57,777 nucleotides of DNA from Candidatus Microgenomatus auricola (lineage in GTDB: Bacteria; Patescibacteriota; Patescibacteriia; SBBC01). Below are positions 1,837 to 55,486 of the stretch, piece by piece. How positions within the stretch are numbered: the first letter of the stretch is position 1; every line of letters starts with the position of its first letter. The stretch is taken from assembly GCA_005239865.1 (NCBI GenBank), contig SBBC01000033.1, positions 1 through 57,777 on the forward strand, in the 5' to 3' direction. The translations under genes and the position numbers were made by a program. The notes under the pieces were generated by a model that did not search any database, was not told the origin of the DNA, and saw only the letters and a program-made list of their open reading frames with translations.

Positions 1837-2991
1837 ATGACGATCGTGCTGGTGACCGAATTTTTTCCGATCACCCTCGGACTCGACGTTCGAGGCGGGG
1901 TTGAAACCGTCAGCGTCTACTGGACTCAGGTTTTGCTGCGTCGGCAACATCGTGTAATTGTACTTGCATCACGCGAGTACGGGACACCAAAACGCAGCTT
2001 GAATGGATCGCTTTCAGTCATCCGATGCGGGTTTCCTCGCGCCTTTAGTCAATCGGGATTTCTTCTCGAGAGACTCAGTTTTTTATTTCACGCGTCACTC
2101 TTGCGACTGCAGGAAAAACCCGATGTGATTATCGGAATGAATTTTCTCGGATACCTACCTGCCTTGGCACTCAGTCGACGATATCGTGTGCCCGTAGTAG
2201 CGGCCTACCATGACGTATGGATTGGCAAGTGGATCAAGAACGTCGGTTTGCTCCCCGGGATTCTCGGTGAGATGTATGAGCGAATGATTCTTCGTGCCGG
2301 GTGGAGTTTTTTTATCGCAAACAGCAACATCACCAAACAAAAATTAATTAGATGCGGTCGTCTTGCTGCCGAACAAATTGCCGTAATCTACAACCCGATC
2401 GATCTTGTTCGGTACCGGTCGCTGCGTGTCAATAAATCTGGTCATCCAACGGTCTGCTATGTAGGTCGTTTGGTCCGCTATAAGCGTATTGATGACCTCC
2501 TGCGGGCATTTGCAGTTGTACATCACTTGATTCCCCTACTCAAAGGTCGAATCATCGGTATCGGACCGGAAGAACAACGATTGCGCAAATTGACCCAAGA
2601 TCTTGGTCTTGAGTCAAGCGTAAACTTCCTGGGGTCACTGCCGAAACACGAAGACGTTATGGTAGAGATCGGACGAGCCCATCTGTTTTGCCTTCCTTCC
2701 GCAGTTGAAGGGTTTGGAATTGTCACCATTGAGGCCATGGCGATGGGGACGCCTTACGTCAACACCGCCATTCCCGCGACGACCGAAATTACCGACAATG
2801 GGATTGGCGGTATTCTTTATCCGGTGGGTGACATTCAGGCATTAGCTGAAGGGATTATCAAGCTCATCAGCGACAAGAACATGAACGAACGTAAGCGACG
2901 TGAGGGCCGTGCATTCGTCGAGCGATATAATCTTGAGTCAATAGGCGCAACTCTTGATCAAGCGCTCTTATCTCTGACCACATCGATCTGA
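1837..2991 (+). CDS. GT4 glycosyltransferase
   Basis: YVGRLVRYKR and EGFGIVTIEAMA (EX7E) motifs. Confidence 0.9.
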   Translation: MTIVLVTEFFPITLGLDVRGGVETVSVYWTQVLLRRQHRVIVLASREYGTPKRSLNGSLSVIRCGFPRAFSQSGFLLERLSFLFHASLLRLQEKPDVIIGMNFLGYLPALALSRRYRVPVVAAYHDVWIGKWIKNVGLLPGILGEMYERMILRAGWSFFIANSNITKQKLIRCGRLAAEQIAVIYNPIDLVRYRSLRVNKSGHPTVCYVGRLVRYKRIDDLLRAFAVVHHLIPLLKGRIIGIGPEEQRLRKLTQDLGLESSVNFLGSLPKHEDVMVEIGRAHLFCLPSAVEGFGIVTIEAMAMGTPYVNTAIPATTEITDNGIGGILYPVGDIQALAEGIIKLISDKNMNERKRREGRAFVERYNLESIGATLDQALLSLTTSI

Positions 2992-3001
2992 CTTCGCAGA
3001 A

Positions 3002-4144
3002 ATGATTTCCTCGCTCCACAATCGTCGAACAGGACAAGAATCTCGCGTTGATCACGACCGTCATTCACATGCCGAACATCCTTCAAAGTCCATTGCGTTA
3101 CTTGTTAGCACCTTCGATGCTTTTAGTGGTATCGACCGTGTGGTCGAACTTCAGGCGATCGAACTGGCGGGGCGAGGCCATCATGTGACAATTATTGCTC
3201 TCGCAGCCACAATGCCAGCACCTCGCGGTACACGTCTACTCACCCTCGGACTTCCATCGTCGACACTGCTCCAACGTCTCTACCGATTATTGATGTTTCT
3301 CGATCAGTCAAAAATCCAGCAGGCGGCTAATCTCCTTAGAGATACTGATATTGTGTACAGTCATCAGTATCCAATGAACCTCATCGCCCTGGAAGCACGA
3401 AAACGCTATGGGTCGACATTTATCTATTATGACCACGGCCTGCCCCCCGCGCGGGTTTTCGGTAGTATCGTTGAACGGGTGTACATTATCCTTTTTCGGT
3501 GGTTCGCCAAGTGGACTGTCCGCCGCGCTGACCGTATAATAACGATCAGCTATTTTCTCCGCCAGGAACTTCAACGACAGACCGGCAAGAAGGCCGAGGT
3601 GATTTACGATCGAATTGACGAACGTCGGTATCATCGAGGCCTTGATCAGGACACGGCCCGAAGATTTATTGGCATCGACGACCGGTTAATGGCGCTATTC
3701 GTCGGTCGCCTCTCACCACATAAAGGAGTTCATCTTCTCCTCCAGGCATGGTCAATTGTCTTTCGGAAAATCCCAAACGTAAAACTCGTGATCGTTGGCA
3801 AGGCAACTTTTCCCCGATATTTACGCAAACTCCACAACCTAGGAAAGGGGATTAACGTCTTGTTCACCGGTGTCGTTTCTGACGAAGACCTTCCGCGATA
3901 CTTCGCCGCCTGCGATATTTACGTCACCGCTTCACTCTGGGAAGGGTTTAATTTACCAATGGCCGAAGCGCACGCATGCGGTAAACCAATCGTTGCCTTT
4001 GACGTCGGTCCCCACAGAGAAATAGCCCGCAAGCGGTCGCGTTTTGTAGCTGCAGGAAACATCACCGAACTCGCCCACGCCATCATCGCGGTCTTCGAAG
4101 AAATACGGGACGATCTTTCGGTTGAACGAAGCGCAAGACCGTAG
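3002..4144 (+). CDS. GT4 glycosyltransferase
   Basis: FVGRLSPHKG and EGFNLPMAEAHA motifs; true start may lie downstream. Confidence 0.9.
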   Translation: MISSLHNRRTGQESRVDHDRHSHAEHPSKSIALLVSTFDAFSGIDRVVELQAIELAGRGHHVTIIALAATMPAPRGTRLLTLGLPSSTLLQRLYRLLMFLDQSKIQQAANLLRDTDIVYSHQYPMNLIALEARKRYGSTFIYYDHGLPPARVFGSIVERVYIILFRWFAKWTVRRADRIITISYFLRQELQRQTGKKAEVIYDRIDERRYHRGLDQDTARRFIGIDDRLMALFVGRLSPHKGVHLLLQAWSIVFRKIPNVKLVIVGKATFPRYLRKLHNLGKGINVLFTGVVSDEDLPRYFAACDIYVTASLWEGFNLPMAEAHACGKPIVAFDVGPHREIARKRSRFVAAGNITELAHAIIAVFEEIRDDLSVERSARP

Positions 4145-4152
4145 AGGTCAAG

Positions 4153-5637
4153 ATGAAGCGTACAACTGTTGTGGGAACGTTCCAACTCATCATCCTCGCA
4201 CTCGTTATCGTTTTTGTGCAGTTGTACTACAACGCTGACCATCAATTGCCACCCTGTTGTGATACCGCCCATACGCTAGTTCGGGCAAAGGCGATCACAA
4301 TGAATGAGTCGGTCAGCGGGATCTTGCCATACAACCCTTCATTCAGAGAACCAATGTACGGGGGCTTCATTTCGACCGAATTTCCTGTTCACGTTTTCCT
4401 TTCGCTATTCTATCAAGTTCAACCTGACCTCATTGGTGACCTAGCATTCGGTAAAAAGTTTTTTGTCGGGATGTTTCTCCTACCCGCCCTGTCTATCTAC
4501 ATTCTGGCCAACCGACTTCTCCACTCATCCATCGCCGGTATAATCGCGGTTCTCATCGTATATTTCGCCTACTGGTTTGGCAATGCCTATTGGACTGGTC
4601 ATGTTGCACAAATTCTCGGCATGTTCATTATTCCGTTCTATATATACTTTATTGTTCGCTACGAAGAGGAGGGCATGATTTTTTTCCTCTACTTTCCTCT
4701 GGTCATACTCCTTTTTTCTTTCTGGGTACATGTCTTGACCTTTCTCATTCTCCTTCTCGTTACAGCCAGTTACGCGATGATTAAAATTTTTTCAACTGGC
4801 GGGAAAGCCAAGGCGGCGATCGCCTACACTGCATTTAGCACCGCCACAATTGTCTATTTTTTGCTCGCACCATTAAATCTCCTCCCTCATTTCGAAGTCA
4901 ATGCGATGTACAATCAGTTTGGAAGCATCATCGAAAGTTCATTCGGGGGAGTGGTATTCCTGACGTTATTGATGGTCGGCTCATTCTTCGCCATCCGAAA
5001 AAGAAGAATACTCATAGTCTGGTTCCTCGTAACCTATTTTTTGACCCAATCGACTTGGCTCGGAGTGCCCTTTTTCGGGATTCGTTTCACCGAGTTCATT
5101 ATTACCCCAATCGCCATCATAGTAGTTTATGGTATGAAGGAATCTTTTAAGGCGATTGGAATGAGAAAAACTGGTTCAGTAGCGATGGCGGTTCTTCTCC
5201 TCATCTTTTTGCCCTTCGGCTTGATGCAGCAGGAGAGGTTGAAATCCTGCTACATTGACAATTGCCTGGGCCTCAACCCGACGCAAATCCCGCCAGACGA
5301 TCTCCAGGCGATGTCATGGATCAAAACAAATATCCCCCGAGAAAGCGTTTTTATCGGACCTCAAAAGTTCGGGTACTATCTTCCTTTCATCACCGATAAT
5401 ACCATTGAGTTTCCAGTGCTTGAACGAATTTCAATTTTTACCGCGCCGACGTCAGCTGAACGATGGCAAATTGCAAAGGGTATCGGCATTGACTATATAT
5501 TTTGGGACGCGATCATTGATTCGTACAAGAACGAACACCCCGATTTTAACAACTACGCGATCGAACCCCTTGAGAACGAAAAGTACTTTGCAAAAGTCTA
5601 TGACGAAGGAAACGCAAAAATATTCGCTGTTCGTTGA
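4153..5637 (+). CDS. Polytopic membrane protein, probable GT-C-fold glycosyltransferase
   Basis: About 11-12 hydrophobic segments, DTAH in the first loop, C-terminal AMSWIKTNIP...IDYI...FAKVYDEG domain typical of GT-C proteins. Confidence 0.6.
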   Translation: MKRTTVVGTFQLIILALVIVFVQLYYNADHQLPPCCDTAHTLVRAKAITMNESVSGILPYNPSFREPMYGGFISTEFPVHVFLSLFYQVQPDLIGDLAFGKKFFVGMFLLPALSIYILANRLLHSSIAGIIAVLIVYFAYWFGNAYWTGHVAQILGMFIIPFYIYFIVRYEEEGMIFFLYFPLVILLFSFWVHVLTFLILLLVTASYAMIKIFSTGGKAKAAIAYTAFSTATIVYFLLAPLNLLPHFEVNAMYNQFGSIIESSFGGVVFLTLLMVGSFFAIRKRRILIVWFLVTYFLTQSTWLGVPFFGIRFTEFIITPIAIIVVYGMKESFKAIGMRKTGSVAMAVLLLIFLPFGLMQQERLKSCYIDNCLGLNPTQIPPDDLQAMSWIKTNIPRESVFIGPQKFGYYLPFITDNTIEFPVLERISIFTAPTSAERWQIAKGIGIDYIFWDAIIDSYKNEHPDFNNYAIEPLENEKYFAKVYDEGNAKIFAVR

Positions 5638-39475: not shown

Positions 39476-39514
39476 GCGCGCGGGTGTCGTATTACGGCTA
39501 TTATGTCACCCTTC

Positions 39515-39720
39515 TCCCGTAAAACGAGGAGCGTGAGCGACGAAGTTTTACTGATCCCGTACGACGAGCTCTTGTGACAATCCTGGCGCAGGTATCGTAT
39601 AATGGTAATACCTCAGCTTTCCAAGCTGATGCCGGGGGTTCGATTCCCCCTACCTGCTCCAAGATTGTCACGGGATCCTCGCAACCAGACGGGCTCGTTC
39701 GTAGCCTCGTCGTTGCGGGA
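39515..39720. mobile_element. 206-nt nested inverted-repeat element (TCCCG...CGGGA) carrying tRNA-Gly(TCC), inserted in the anticodon of the outer tRNA
   Basis: Concentric arms tcccgtacgacgag 39555-68 / ctcgtcgttgcggga 39706-20 and tcttgtgacaatc 39570-82 / gattgtcacggga 39663-75, plus the self-contained unit tcccgtaaaac...gttttac at 39515-51. Confidence 0.65.
39588..39661 (+). tRNA. tRNA-Gly(TCC), intact, CCA encoded
   Basis: Acceptor GCAGGTA/TACCTGC, anticodon arm TCAGC-TTTCCAA-GCTGA, T-arm GGGGG-TTCGATT-CCCCC. Confidence 0.97.
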
Positions 39721-42161: not shown

Positions 42162-42236
42162 GGCCTGGTAGCCAAGTGGTAAGGCAAGGGTCTGCAAAAC
42201 CCTTATTCAGGGGTTCGAATCCCCTCCAGGCCTCCA
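42162..42236 (+). tRNA. tRNA-Cys(GCA), CCA encoded
   Basis: Acceptor GGCCTGG/CCAGGCC, anticodon arm AGGGT-CTGCAAA-ACCCT, T-arm AGGGG-TTCGAAT-CCCCT. Confidence 0.97.
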
Positions 42237-42251
42237 ACAGAAATGAGCGGC

Positions 42252-42284
42252 CTGGTGCGGGGCGAATTCCCCTCGTGGCCTCCA
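42252..42284 (+). pseudogene. Relic: element right arm plus the 3' end of a second tRNA-Cys
   Basis: CTGGTGCGGGG followed by CGAATTCCCCTCGTGGCCTCCA (half T-loop, T-stem, a different acceptor 3' strand, U discriminator, CCA). Confidence 0.55.
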
Positions 42285-42288
42285 TCGC

Positions 42289-42647
<359 letters not shown>

Positions 42648-42650
42648 CCG

Positions 42651-42792
42651 TCCCGCACCACTTGCCAAATAATTGTGATTTCTGCGCGAGAGTAGTTCAG
42701 TGGTAGAACGCTTCCTTGCCAAGGAAGAGGTCGGGGGTTCGAGTCCCCTCTCTCGCTCCAAGTAAAGTAATTTCTACTCAAGTGGTGCGGGA
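42651..42792. mobile_element. Inverted-repeat element carrying tRNA-Gly(GCC), in place of the T-arm of the outer tRNA
   Basis: Perfect 14-bp IR TCCCGCACCACTTG (42651-64) / CAAGTGGTGCGGGA (42779-92). Confidence 0.75.
42686..42760 (+). tRNA. tRNA-Gly(GCC), intact, CCA encoded
   Basis: Acceptor GCGAGAG/CTCTCGC, anticodon arm CTTCC-TTGCCAA-GGAAG, T-loop TTCGAGT. Confidence 0.97.
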
Positions 42793-52102: not shown

Positions 52103-54172
52103 ATGAACCTTGAAGTTCTTGCCTTGAGCATCAGCATCATCGGGATTATCTTTGCCTGGTGGCTGACCACCTACGTCCGGAAACAAGGTGAAGGGACCGA
52201 GGCGATGACGAAGGTCGCGCAGGCGATCCGCGCCGGCGCCAAGGCGTTCCTCCGCCGCCAATACAAAACCATCGCCGCGTTGACGATTCTTCTGGCAATC
52301 CTTATTTTTGCCGTTTACGCCATCATCGGCAAGATGAACGTGGCCATCGAAACCAGCAGCGCCTTCTTGTTCGGCGCCTTGTGCTCCGGGATGGCCGGGT
52401 TTACCGGCATGTACGTCTCGGTCCGGGCGAACAGCAAGGTCGCGGCCGCGGCCAACCGCCAGGATTTAAACGCGGCCCTCCGGACGGCGCTGCGGGGCGG
52501 CGCGGTCTCCGGAATTTTGGTGGCCGCCCTGTCCCTGTTGGGCGTAACCGTGCTCTATCTTTTGTATCGCAATGTTTTCCATTTTGATGATCGACAAATT
52601 CCCGAAGCCATTATCGGCTTCGGTTTCGGCGCTTCTTTCGTGGCGCTGTTTGCCCAACTCGGCGGCGGAATTTACACCAAAGCGGCGGACGTCGGCGCGG
52701 ATTTGGTCGGCAAGGTTGAAGCCGGAATTCCCGAGGACGACCCGCGTAACCCGGCGGTCATCGCCGACCTGGTGGGCGACAATGTTGGTGATTGCGCCGG
52801 CCGTGGCGCCGACCTATTCGAGTCGACCGCCGCCGAAAGCATCGGCGCGATGATTCTCGGCGTGGCGCTCTATCCGGCCTTCGGAGTGAAGGGCATTCTC
52901 GTGCCGCTGATCATCAACGCCTTCGGTTTGATTGCCTCGGCGGTCGGCGTCATGAGCGTCAAGGTTAAGCACGATGAGGATCCGATGAAAGCGCTGAACC
53001 GTGGTTACTACGTGACGCTCCTCTTGGCGGTCCTGGTGATGTTCTTTGTGACCAAGGGAATGCTCGGGCCTGCATACCTGTGGTTCTTCAGCGCTGGCCT
53101 GGTCGGTTTAGCCATGAACACGGTTTTCGTGTGGCTGACGCAATACTACACCGATCACAAGTACCGTCCGGTCAAGGAAATCGCTCGCGCCTCGGAGACC
53201 GGTCCGGGCACAAACATCATTTCGGGGCTGGCCGTCGGCTTTGAAAACACCGCTTTTCCGATCATGGCGATTGCCGCCGCCCTGCTCGGTGCCTATAGTT
53301 TGGGTCAGGCCAGCGGACTTGAGCATGGCGGGCTCTACGCGACCGCGATTGCGACCATGGGCATGCTGTCAACCGCTGGATATATCTTGGCGATGGACAC
53401 CTTCGGTCCGATCACGGACAACGCTGGGGGGATCGTGGAAATGGCCGGCGGCGAAGATGCCACGCGGAAAATTACTGATCGTCTTGACGCGGTGGGGAAC
53501 ACGACGAAAGCGCTGACCAAGGGTTACGCCGTTGGTTCGGCCGCCCTGGCCGCCTTCCTGCTGTTCTCGGCGTACCTTGAAGTGGCGGACATCACCGCGG
53601 TCGACTTGTCGAAAGTACCGGTCTTCATCGGCGCCATGCTCGGCGCGATGCTCGTGTTTTTGTTCTCGAGTTTGGCGATTCGGGCGGTTGGGAAGACGGC
53701 CCAGTACATCATTGAGGAAGTCCGGCGCCAGTTCCGTGAGCATCCGGGAATCATGCAGAGCACGGAGCAACCGGACTACGGCCAAGCCGTTGATATCACC
53801 ACACGCGGCGCTTTGCGGAACATGGTCTTTCCCGGCGTGATCGCCGTAGTCGTGCCAGTCATCGTGGGGTTGGTTCTTCGGGCCGAGGCCGCGGCCGGGT
53901 TTCTGATGGTCGCCACCATTGCCGGCGTGATCATGGCGCTGGTCATGAACAACGCCGGCGGCGCCTGGGACAACGCGAAGAAATACATCGAGTCAGGCGA
54001 GTTCAGAGATTCGAAAGGTGAGGTGCAAGGCAAAAAAACACCGGTCCACGCCGCAGCCGTGGTTGGCGATACGGTCGGCGATCCGTTCAAGGATACGGCT
54101 GGCCCATCGCTGCATGTCTTGATCAAGCTGTTGTCGACCTTAACGTTGGTGCTGGCGCCGTTGTTTGTGTAG
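52103..54172 (+). CDS. hppA: Membrane-bound pyrophosphatase, K+-independent H+-PPase signature
   Basis: GGGIYTKAADVGADLVGKVE, DNVGD, GNTTKALTKG (Lys/Thr signature), GDTVGDPFKDT. Confidence 0.95.
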   Translation: MNLEVLALSISIIGIIFAWWLTTYVRKQGEGTEAMTKVAQAIRAGAKAFLRRQYKTIAALTILLAILIFAVYAIIGKMNVAIETSSAFLFGALCSGMAGFTGMYVSVRANSKVAAAANRQDLNAALRTALRGGAVSGILVAALSLLGVTVLYLLYRNVFHFDDRQIPEAIIGFGFGASFVALFAQLGGGIYTKAADVGADLVGKVEAGIPEDDPRNPAVIADLVGDNVGDCAGRGADLFESTAAESIGAMILGVALYPAFGVKGILVPLIINAFGLIASAVGVMSVKVKHDEDPMKALNRGYYVTLLLAVLVMFFVTKGMLGPAYLWFFSAGLVGLAMNTVFVWLTQYYTDHKYRPVKEIARASETGPGTNIISGLAVGFENTAFPIMAIAAALLGAYSLGQASGLEHGGLYATAIATMGMLSTAGYILAMDTFGPITDNAGGIVEMAGGEDATRKITDRLDAVGNTTKALTKGYAVGSAALAAFLLFSAYLEVADITAVDLSKVPVFIGAMLGAMLVFLFSSLAIRAVGKTAQYIIEEVRRQFREHPGIMQSTEQPDYGQAVDITTRGALRNMVFPGVIAVVVPVIVGLVLRAEAAAGFLMVATIAGVIMALVMNNAGGAWDNAKKYIESGEFRDSKGEVQGKKTPVHAAAVVGDTVGDPFKDTAGPSLHVLIKLLSTLTLVLAPLFV

Positions 54173-54173
54173 T

Positions 54174-54234
54174 TCCCACCCCCTCGGCTACGCCGTACCC
54201 CCTCCCTAATTAGGGAGGGGGCTTGGGGGTGGGA
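54174..54234. repeat. Nested palindrome at the 3' end of the DUF559 gene
   Basis: TCCCACCCCC/GGGGGTGGGA enclosing the perfect 24-bp palindrome CCCCCTCCCTAATTAGGGAGGGGG (54198-54221). Confidence 0.85.
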
Positions 54235-54590
54235 GTAAGCAGGATGCGCTCCAACTTCCGAAGGACGCCCCGGATGTTCCTCATCACTTCGTTATTCCGA
54301 AACCGAACGACGCGAATGTAGCAGGAGCGGAGAAACCGTGTGCGTTCGTGGTCGTAGTCTTTTTGCTCAGGTGCATCATGATTGTCCCCATCAATCTCAA
54401 TCGCCAATCGTTTCGCCGGACAGTAGAAATCAACAATATACCGTCCGATTCCTTCTTGCCGTCTGAACTTGAAGCCATGAAACTGCCGCTGACGCAAATA
54501 CCGCCACAACAACCTTTCGGCATTGGTGGCATGATTTCGTAACGACTTGCGTAGCGACGTGTATTGGTTGAGGTGATATAAACGCGGCAT
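54210..54590 (-). CDS. DUF559 (Vsr-like PD-(D/E)xK) endonuclease
   Basis: LR..AT.AE..LW..LR, KFRRQ..IG.YIVDFYC, IEIDG..H, D..RT..L, RF.N; AAAGGA RBS. Confidence 0.92.
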   Translation of the reverse strand: MPRLYHLNQYTSLRKSLRNHATNAERLLWRYLRQRQFHGFKFRRQEGIGRYIVDFYCPAKRLAIEIDGDNHDAPEQKDYDHERTRFLRSCYIRVVRFRNNEVMRNIRGVLRKLERILLTPTPKPPP

Positions 54591-54652
54591 ACGGTCCTTT
54601 GCCGCGCCACCATAGACACAATATCGGATTGTTTAATTTCGTCAATACTCGG

Positions 54653-54712
54653 TATGCGTTGCTTAAACTGCTATCCATCCTGACTATGGTCCTGGCGCCG
54701 TTGTTTGTGTAA
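54653..54712 (+). repeat. Diverged duplicate of the last 20 codons of hppA
   Basis: YALLKLLSILTMVLAPLFV* versus HVLIKLLSTLTLVLAPLFV* (54113-54172); exact 540-bp offset; 20-nt identity CTGGCGCCGTTGTTTGTGTA. Confidence 0.9.
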
Positions 54713-54847
54713 CGTCAAATCGAACGTCGTTTCCCGGCGCGGGCTTTTAGCCCACGCTGTAGTTTGGTTGGTTAAATATCAAATTTTTCCCATGTACAAA
54801 CCTCTCTTCAACCTATAAGCTAAAAGCTAACAGCTATCAGCTAACTC

Positions 54848-55486
54848 ATGGCTTACCCGATCGCCCGCCACAGCTTGCTCCCCTTCGTTCGCGTGTTCGC
54901 GAAAAACATCGAGGGGATGGAGCGGATTCCGAACGGTCCGGTGGTAGTCGCGGCCAATCACCTCGGCTTGTTCGATCCGTTGTTCATCGGCGCAATCTAT
55001 GTCCAACAGACGAAACAGAAATTGCGTTTCCTCGTGGGTACCGCAAACATGTTCTGGCGCGCACTCGGGTATTTCCTCCAGCACTGGACGAACACTATTC
55101 CGGTTCGCCGCCATCGCGAAGCCGAAGCGGTTGAGCAAGCGGTCATGGCTTTGCGGAGGGGCGAAAGCGTGGCGGTTTTTCCCGAGGGCAAGGTGAACCG
55201 CTTGCCCGCGTTGCTGACCGGAAAGACCGGCGCGGTTCGGATGAGTTTATTGGCACCGGCGCCGATCCTACCGGTCGGCATTGAAAACACGAACGTGCGA
55301 TTGCTGACTATTCTGGGCCGGAGATTTCTCAACCGGCAAGAAGGGATTTCCATCCGTTTCGGCGAACCGTATCAACCGCAGGGCGACGTCAATGAACCGC
55401 ATGCGGTCAGGAAGCTGACTGACGATCTCATGGAGGAGATTGCCCGCTTGAGCGGTAAAGTTTTCCCGAACAGCCATGCCGCATGA
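54848..55486 (+). CDS. Lysophospholipid acyltransferase (PlsC family)
   Basis: NHLGLFD (HxxxxD), FPEG, KTGAVR. Confidence 0.9.
   Translation: MAYPIARHSLLPFVRVFAKNIEGMERIPNGPVVVAANHLGLFDPLFIGAIYVQQTKQKLRFLVGTANMFWRALGYFLQHWTNTIPVRRHREAEAVEQAVMALRRGESVAVFPEGKVNRLPALLTGKTGAVRMSLLAPAPILPVGIENTNVRLLTILGRRFLNRQEGISIRFGEPYQPQGDVNEPHAVRKLTDDLMEEIARLSGKVFPNSHAA

Follow-up and report, generated by a model that had tools for sequence, protein, structure and literature searches.

The 57,777 nt stretch of DNA considered here (the window; contig SBBC01000033.1 of Candidatus Microgenomatus auricola, assembly GCA_005239865.1, with all positions numbered within the window) contains an intact hppA gene, followed on the opposite strand by a gene for a stand-alone DUF559 protein, and then by a second, displaced copy of the hppA 3′ end (Table 1). 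The two gene ends form a direct repeat (54114-54171 and 54654-54711) which is 76% identical and has a spacing of exactly 540 bp. With an alignment score of 60 versus a maximum of 28 for shuffled sequences, this confirmed the presence of a 540-bp unit between two copies of the last ~20 hppA codons, as described in a previous interpretation made from the sequence alone (the sequence-only reading). The nested palindrome, the antisense DUF559 gene with its ribosome binding site and the hairpin behind the displaced copy, all described there, were recovered as well. The stability of the nested hairpin (z -6.0) was matched by 0/200 shuffles, and the stop codon of the DUF559 gene forms the centre of its perfect palindrome; the 91-nt region of the hairpin behind the displaced copy is not unusually stable (z -0.99). 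The promoter predicted for the DUF559 gene, for which one site was found versus 0.8 expected by chance, has a -35 box ending 5 nt short of the second hppA-end copy, and is followed by a GCCAC motif (54606-54610, + strand) which precedes many DUF559 genes. DUF559/MTES_1575 was the sole protein-family match (Pfam) in the 540-bp insert, where scans of open reading frames (ORFs) and Pfam domains detected no methylase and no transposase or integrase.

Of the last 20 codons, eight are identical between the copies, six differ synonymously and six specify another amino acid, with the stop codons differing as well (TAG and TAA). We searched 21 genomes of the order, of which 19, including the window genome (G000), had a complete hppA end. 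Since the second copy is altered at H-19, V-18, I-16, T-11 and L-8, five residues which are invariant in 18/18 other hppA ends of the order, it is a relic, once coding and now decayed, and the idea that it represents a second functional allele is rejected. The sequence-only reading was right that the displaced copy had once been coding, and its description of the differences as mostly synonymous or conservative understated how far this copy has decayed. All 16 nucleotide differences fall at positions 1-42 of the 62 nt compared (permutation p 0.0007), leaving no differences in the last 20 nt, and such identity of the last 20 nt was found in just 1/171 pairs of hppA ends from the order; because of this confinement and rarity, the terminal block was likely exchanged or converted late. 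Third-position identity to the 18 relatives does not separate the working end from the relic.

Contigs from the probable source run, and from runs of other studies (X3, X4), were compared with the window. The locus is covered from end to end by one contig from the probable source run, and contigs carrying the cassette at about 94% identity are present in runs of two other studies (with 23 differences in 397 nt between the X3 cassette contigs and the window), so that an assembly artefact, a concern raised with the sequence-only reading, is rejected. Another X3 contig joins 54102 to 54680 via 37 letters coding GPSLHVLIKLLAT, giving an allele exactly 540 bp shorter, and continues into the hairpin at 54737, which is fully paired in this empty allele. 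In the family relative G018, the hppA stop is followed by 135 nt up to the ATG of the acyltransferase gene, with 96/138 columns identical to 54713-54850, and in the window the acyltransferase starts at that same distance past the stop of the relic. DUF559 was absent beside hppA in 5/5 family genomes with hppA (one with only 242 nt of flank); the genus consists of the window genome alone. Because of the empty alleles and the shared 135-nt spacing, the insert is genuine and polymorphic, and the ancestral place behind an intact hppA gene is that of the second copy; DUF559 is patchy and not fixed. For the X3 cassette contigs the alignment breaks off at 54155 and at 54708, within one and the other copy of the 20-nt block, and 68 and 134 more letters lie beyond those edges, mostly not fitting the window; this pattern suggests that the unit may have moved between hosts. 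The empty X3 hppA end is distant from both copies in the window. The drop in identity to X3 (143/171 before the junction and 22/37 after it, a hand count) is suggestive of a foreign working end, but all pairs drop there, and the aligner set the border.

Table 1. Features of the hppA-DUF559 locus (positions within the window)
Feature	Position	Strand	Basis
hppA, membrane pyrophosphatase, 689 aa, intact	52103..54172	+	ORF; Pfam PF03030 (H_PPase), E 3.8e-260
Working hppA 3′ end LHVLIKLLSTLTLVLAPLFV, stop TAG, canonical for the order	54110..54172	+	Comparison with hppA ends of the order
20-nt block shared without differences by the two copies; the latest crossover or conversion likely took place here	54152..54171	+	Alignment of the copies; alignment edge of X3 cassette contig at 54155
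Nested hairpin with C-rich arms on the left and G-rich arms on the right; perfect 24-nt palindrome at 54198-54221	54174..54234	.	Folding
DUF559 gene, 126 aa, predicted stand-alone Vsr-like PD-(D/E)XK nuclease domain	54210..54590	-	PF04480, E 4.8e-35
Shine-Dalgarno-like AAGGA, 4 nt ahead of the ATG	54595..54599	-	Sequence
Predicted sigma-70 promoter: TTGACG 54645-54640, 16-nt spacer, TATTGT 54623-54618	54606..54645	-	Sequence prediction
Displaced, decayed copy of the hppA 3′ end RYALLKLLSILTMVLAPLFV, stop TAA, ancestral position	54650..54712	+	Alignment of the copies; relatives
Host hairpin, terminator-like (putative function)	54737..54757	+	Similar hairpin behind the hppA stop in G017 and G018
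Acyltransferase gene, adjoining hppA in family relatives whose site is empty	54848..55486	+	Pfam PF01553

Displaced hppA ends are not confined to the window. They were clearly present in 4/19 genomes of the order, namely the window genome, G012 (four copies), G008 and G003, and in 1/20 further genomes of the class (20 of 23 fetched for hppA ends), where G116 has one such end behind 3 kb of cargo. None was detected in 78 distant hppA loci scored out of 80, many of which have a different gene end, and a pattern search across the phylum gave a match in 13/401 genomes, with two copies only in the window genome. The cargo lacks DUF559 in 7/8 clear hppA relics; it includes a helix-turn-helix (HTH) protein, membrane and unknown proteins, a radical SAM protein, a methyltransferase and TrmB, and the nine cargo proteins scanned matched no integrase or nuclease family. 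At the DUF559 loci themselves, a displaced gene end was found in 1/33 cases in the order (38 loci fetched out of 45 matches, 33 of them with a testable convergent gene), that one being the window locus, and in 0/32 testable cases among the best 80 of 315 metagenome loci from JGI. Since seven other clear relics flank non-DUF559 cargo, and a copy accompanies only 1/65 testable DUF559 loci, the gene-end duplication belongs to the hppA site and not to the nuclease. Relics start between codons G-23 and H-19 in 6/8 clear cases (about -72 to -23 nt overall). At that edge the mean pairwise DNA identity falls from 0.81-0.88 to 0.69, the block being the most conserved of the hppA end, and the longest identical run ends at codons -30 to -21 in 106/171 genome pairs.

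The most elaborate of these loci is that of G012 (L137, G012:C67, 1500-3730), where four hppA relics are stacked between small antisense cargo genes and promoter-like boxes adjoin the relics. An antisense protein of 100-130 aa with the motif GPSKWDL was seen by eye behind hppA in both G008 (L136, ~2860-3170) and G012 (L137, 3837-4133), the G012 copy being without a Pfam match. The window relic and the third relic of G012 share two changes (H>Y and T>I); common ancestry is unproven, as they match at 28/39 nt, which is no higher than the match with the working end of G003 (out-of-frame rows of G008 were excluded from the relic-to-relic comparison). Two relics elsewhere resemble the end of their own host gene (35/39 and 34/39 nt). 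Two class loci near the threshold (L242 and L253) were dropped as AT-rich matches without an hppA-like translation. The dnaK end is also displaced in G008 and G010, and weakly in G016, with the last 7-17 codons copied 260-640 bp downstream (L285, L288 and L287, respectively), where they apparently provide the stop for an ORF inserted on the same strand; this was seen at 0/5 dnaK loci carrying DUF559. Gene-end cassettes throughout the window genome were rejected: 8/802 ORFs scored at least 28 versus one in the control, and the other high scorers, as judged by translation only, look like tandem paralogs or chance matches.

The DUF559 gene is one of four in the 1.0-Mb window genome, and these genes appear to have a mobility of their own. 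Hairpins with a stem of at least 9 bp were found at the 3′ end of DUF559 at 33/37 loci in the order and 59/76 in the JGI set, versus 17/300 control gene ends, and on both sides of the gene at 9/37 and 34/65 loci, respectively; a scan of the window genome gave 28 hairpin matches versus the four DUF559 genes. A pair of promoter motifs precedes the gene at 24/38 order loci, a partly circular count since the motif was derived from these loci. The units adjoin conserved genes, which from their translations we take to be dnaK, recA, ileS and others, and their presence is patchy (5/16 dnaK loci and 3/20 recA loci with upstream DNA). Several DUF559 clades track the neighbouring gene, with support of 98/96 for the ileS-like, 100/98 for the recA and 100/99 for the L,D-transpeptidase-like neighbour. 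The sister of the window protein (68% identity, support 99/87) is encoded at an unrelated locus, where hairpin copies 480 bp apart flank its gene, and no close relative was found among the best 80 of 315 JGI loci (best 52%) or 40 viral loci. In the protein, the domain spans residues 11-115 of 126, with D54, E65 and D67 invariant and E25 and H71 conserved in at least 90% of 61 sequences, next to a conserved G68. The family profile matches the catalytic domain of I-Bth0305I (3r3p, E 1.3e-4), with no N-terminal DNA-binding region in the window protein; its relatives have a median length of 128.5 aa, and 1/76 ORFs exceeds 170 aa. DUF559 with its hairpin behaves as a separate and patchy unit, which is probably mobile. 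Because the hairpin family is tightly tied to DUF559 loci, the protein may be regarded as a fair candidate enzyme for these hairpins, in line with the role proposed for it in the sequence-only reading.

Long non-coding direct repeats surround 5/37 DUF559 units in the order (hairpins masked; the window locus and one tandem pair included), versus 0/37 in the inverted control and 2/150 control genes; at JGI loci they were found at 5/63 versus 6/63 in the inverted control. One further unit of the window genome (L147, G000:C49, ~3915-4570) lies between 25-bp direct repeats, 23/25 identical and 629 bp apart. Upstream of an ileS-like gene in G017 (L109), and more weakly in G020 (L106), DUF559 is flanked by a duplicated operator-like palindrome (30/32 identical, 530 bp apart), the L109 repeat being a long target duplication of the promoter region. 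Two tandem DUF559 genes are present behind dnaK in G020 (G020:C15, 85247-86260; L122 and L133), each with promoter motif and hairpins, and the DUF559 gene of contig C10 adjoins an ORF which, from its motif, presumably resembles a reverse transcriptase.

We propose that the DUF559 unit was captured at the hppA 3′ end by recombination of the host, leaving the former gene end stranded behind it, an explanation which we place just on the probable side. A donor would have carried the DUF559 unit directly after its hppA stop, as is seen for DUF559 units behind dnaK, behind L,D-transpeptidase-like and behind glutamate-dehydrogenase-like genes. On uptake by a competent cell, the donor DNA would then pair over the most conserved hppA block (codons TVGDPFKDTAGP), with the non-homologous donor end, just past the nuclease promoter, being joined at the edge of that block, so that hppA would continue into the donor end and the last ~20 codons of the recipient would be shifted downstream. 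The relic would subsequently decay, with the unit later moving between hosts or homogenising via the terminal 20-nt block, for which the simplest route would be a 540-bp circle that enters through one crossover. All three steps are our inference. The relic starts at the edge of a conserved block fit homology-anchored capture in a competent cell, and ComEC, DprA and RecA are encoded in the window genome. Natural competence has been reported for Saccharibacteria (PMC10633639), and in the E. coli experiments of PMC3240628, circles with a partial gene entered by single crossover and gave duplications of 109-950 bp. In this proposal the nuclease is likely a passenger, with a mobility of its own that is linked to the hairpin; its predicted activity may raise local recombination, and is not needed for the gene-end duplication.

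Several observations weigh against capture by the host. A block of 20 nt is short for RecA-type exchange. A second DUF559 gene, 54% identical and not a sister of that in the window, is located 1.6-1.9 kb behind hppA in G011, where its promoter is directly followed by a probable six-codon hppA relic; with a score of 18.5 this relic is inside the general null range, and is the highest among 37 other DUF559 promoter windows. Because of this second, non-sister gene behind hppA, DUF559 has reached the site twice. The clustered junctions are compatible with a nuclease cut, as homing nucleases also prefer conserved motifs, and the X3 cassette contigs have a depth of 3.7-5.7, with flanks known only as unaligned lengths. 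Finally, homology-facilitated illegitimate recombination (HFIR), as described in PMC3240628, usually deletes recipient DNA and does not duplicate it, and the zero-deletion junction at hppA is an extension of the published process.

One alternative is free-standing homing, in which DUF559 would cut an empty hppA close to the GPSLH codons and a filled allele would serve as repair template, so that the cassette is copied in, with hppA as the left and the relic as the right arm, and with other cargo representing decayed units or units moved in trans. The layout matches that of the fungal mitochondrial endonuclease ORFs presented in PMC3630166, where the C-terminus is duplicated, the family profile matches the catalytic domain of I-Bth0305I, putative catalytic residues are conserved, 9/17 listed differences to the X3 allele are synonymous, and the neighbour-tracking, patchy clades resemble the phage free-standing enzymes discussed in PMC2988022. 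We nevertheless consider homing unlikely. The sequence-only reading saw the replaced gene end as the homing logic of the element itself, and this is not supported in view of the rarity of gene-end copies at DUF559 loci and of the seven hppA relics without DUF559; the 68% sister occupies an unrelated locus between hairpins. The proposed homing-like enzyme further lacks the N-terminal DNA-binding region seen in EDxHD homing enzymes, such as the NUMOD motifs reported for I-Bth0305I (PMC3239194), and the agreement between clade and locus equally fits vertical descent with losses.

A trans-acting site-specific recombinase from a phage, an island or the host (Xer-like) could also have used the hppA end as attachment (att) site, the cassettes then being minimal or decayed islands, and the clustered relic starts, the tandem stacking in G012, and the one full and one partial tyrosine recombinase of the window genome are in its favour. 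This is improbable: the starts range from about -72 to -23 nt, the nine scanned cargo proteins include no integrase family, neither tyrosine recombinase is on the window contig, no viral contig matched an exact-match degenerate hppA-end pattern (a strict test), and divergence between the copies is highest towards the 5′ side of the repeat, where no differences would be expected in an att core. Poorest of all is a purely local event, in which a hairpin-DUF559 unit inserted in one lineage and duplicated 60 bp of target, followed by drift and conversion of the last 20 nt: it can draw on the long direct repeats at other DUF559 units in the order and on the two relics resembling their own host end, and is very improbable in view of synonymous positions near saturation versus only five non-synonymous changes in codons -19 to -7, which therefore require two alleles diverged under selection, of JGI direct repeats no commoner than the inverted control, and of relics without DUF559, which it leaves unexplained.

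Elsewhere in the window, the first 49 nt of tRNA-Gly(GCC) recur 83 bp upstream as an 86% copy (region 42602-42760), the 3′ end of tRNA-Cys recurs 48 bp downstream as a 61% copy (region 42207-42285), and tRNA-Gly(TCC) is preceded by a degenerate tRNA-like 5′ piece, as seen by eye (region about 39479-39661). A repeat beginning GACTAGTTTAG is present in two variants near the ends of eight contigs (C4, C10, C12, C17, C38, C42, C50 and C54), is probably a collapsed mobile element, and in C38 adjoins a tyrosine recombinase.

Capture at a conserved gene end, which serves as landing site while the gene stays intact, would provide small-genome bacteria with a form of integrase-free gene gain, with the stranded gene ends recording the capture events (four in one genome, G012). 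The locus also offers a lead on a common domain of unknown function, as DUF559 is presented here as a promoter-gene-hairpin unit beside conserved genes, with both filled and empty alleles in hand. As a bolder conjecture, which we hold tentatively and think doubtful as a whole, DUF559 and its C-rich/G-rich hairpin may be an undescribed minimal selfish element, whose 126-residue nuclease would nick hairpins or neighbouring conserved genes and so bring about the spread of itself and of unrelated cargo via the competence machinery of ultra-small bacteria, with hppA-like ends becoming integrase-free cassette arrays which excise and re-enter via ~20 bp of coding sequence.

Among the titles and abstracts listed in searches of the open-access literature, none described DUF559-hairpin units or hppA-end cassettes; the layout of a gene-end duplication around an insert does have precedents. 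The short dispersed palindromes, often flanking an enzyme gene on both sides and with the enzyme tied to the palindrome family, are reminiscent of the repetitive extragenic palindromic (REP) elements and REPINs with their RAYTs. RAYTs are HUH Y1 transposases, whereas the window enzyme has a PD-(D/E)XK-type nuclease domain, with a Pfam match to DUF559/MTES_1575 only and not to HUH Y1, and is linked to the hairpins by position. Unlike a tyrosine-integrase island at a gene 3′ end, the locus has no integrase, and its repeat, most divergent in the 5′ part, has no att core of identical sequence at that edge. HFIR and single-crossover insertion-duplication, as described in PMC3240628, share the single homologous anchor with a non-homologous joint, and circles with part of a gene duplicate that part; HFIR there deletes about as much as it inserts, whereas the window has no deletion, and the junctions of different genomes gather at a single conserved motif. 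The EDxHD enzyme I-Bth0305I (PMC3239194) and the phage free-standing enzymes of PMC2988022 have a related Vsr-like catalytic domain and a position beside conserved genes. Unlike I-Bth0305I as characterised in PMC3239194, the window DUF559 protein is chromosomal, has no NUMOD/HTH N-terminus and is a prediction from sequence.

The two closest parallels are insertion with long target duplication and the fungal mitochondrial endonuclease ORFs. In the restriction-modification genes described in PMC2853133, as in the window, a nuclease gene is found within a direct repeat of >30 bp, with no transposase or integrase and with an empty allele in relatives, and the hosts named there are mostly naturally competent; the window has a repeat of 58-63 bp, an insert of 540 bp (<20 kb) and a single copy at the empty site (G018 and X3). 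The repeats reported in PMC2853133 are near-identical (44-47 of 46-47 bp) and enclose restriction and methylase genes, whereas the window repeat is a coding gene end at 76% identity around a lone DUF559 gene, at a site which also takes non-nuclease cargo. In the fungal examples given in PMC3630166 (Allomyces atp6; Glomus atp6, atp9, cox2 and nad3), the common layout is that of a gene, a working C-terminus, an endonuclease ORF and a stranded C-terminus. The fungal enzymes are of the LAGLIDADG or GIY-YIG type and are stated there to drive the mobility, whereas the DUF559 gene is antisense, hairpin-ended and bacterial, and the duplication does not travel with its family. The hppA locus works like a long target duplication and looks like the fungal mitochondrial ORFs, and departs from each in the property by which it is defined.

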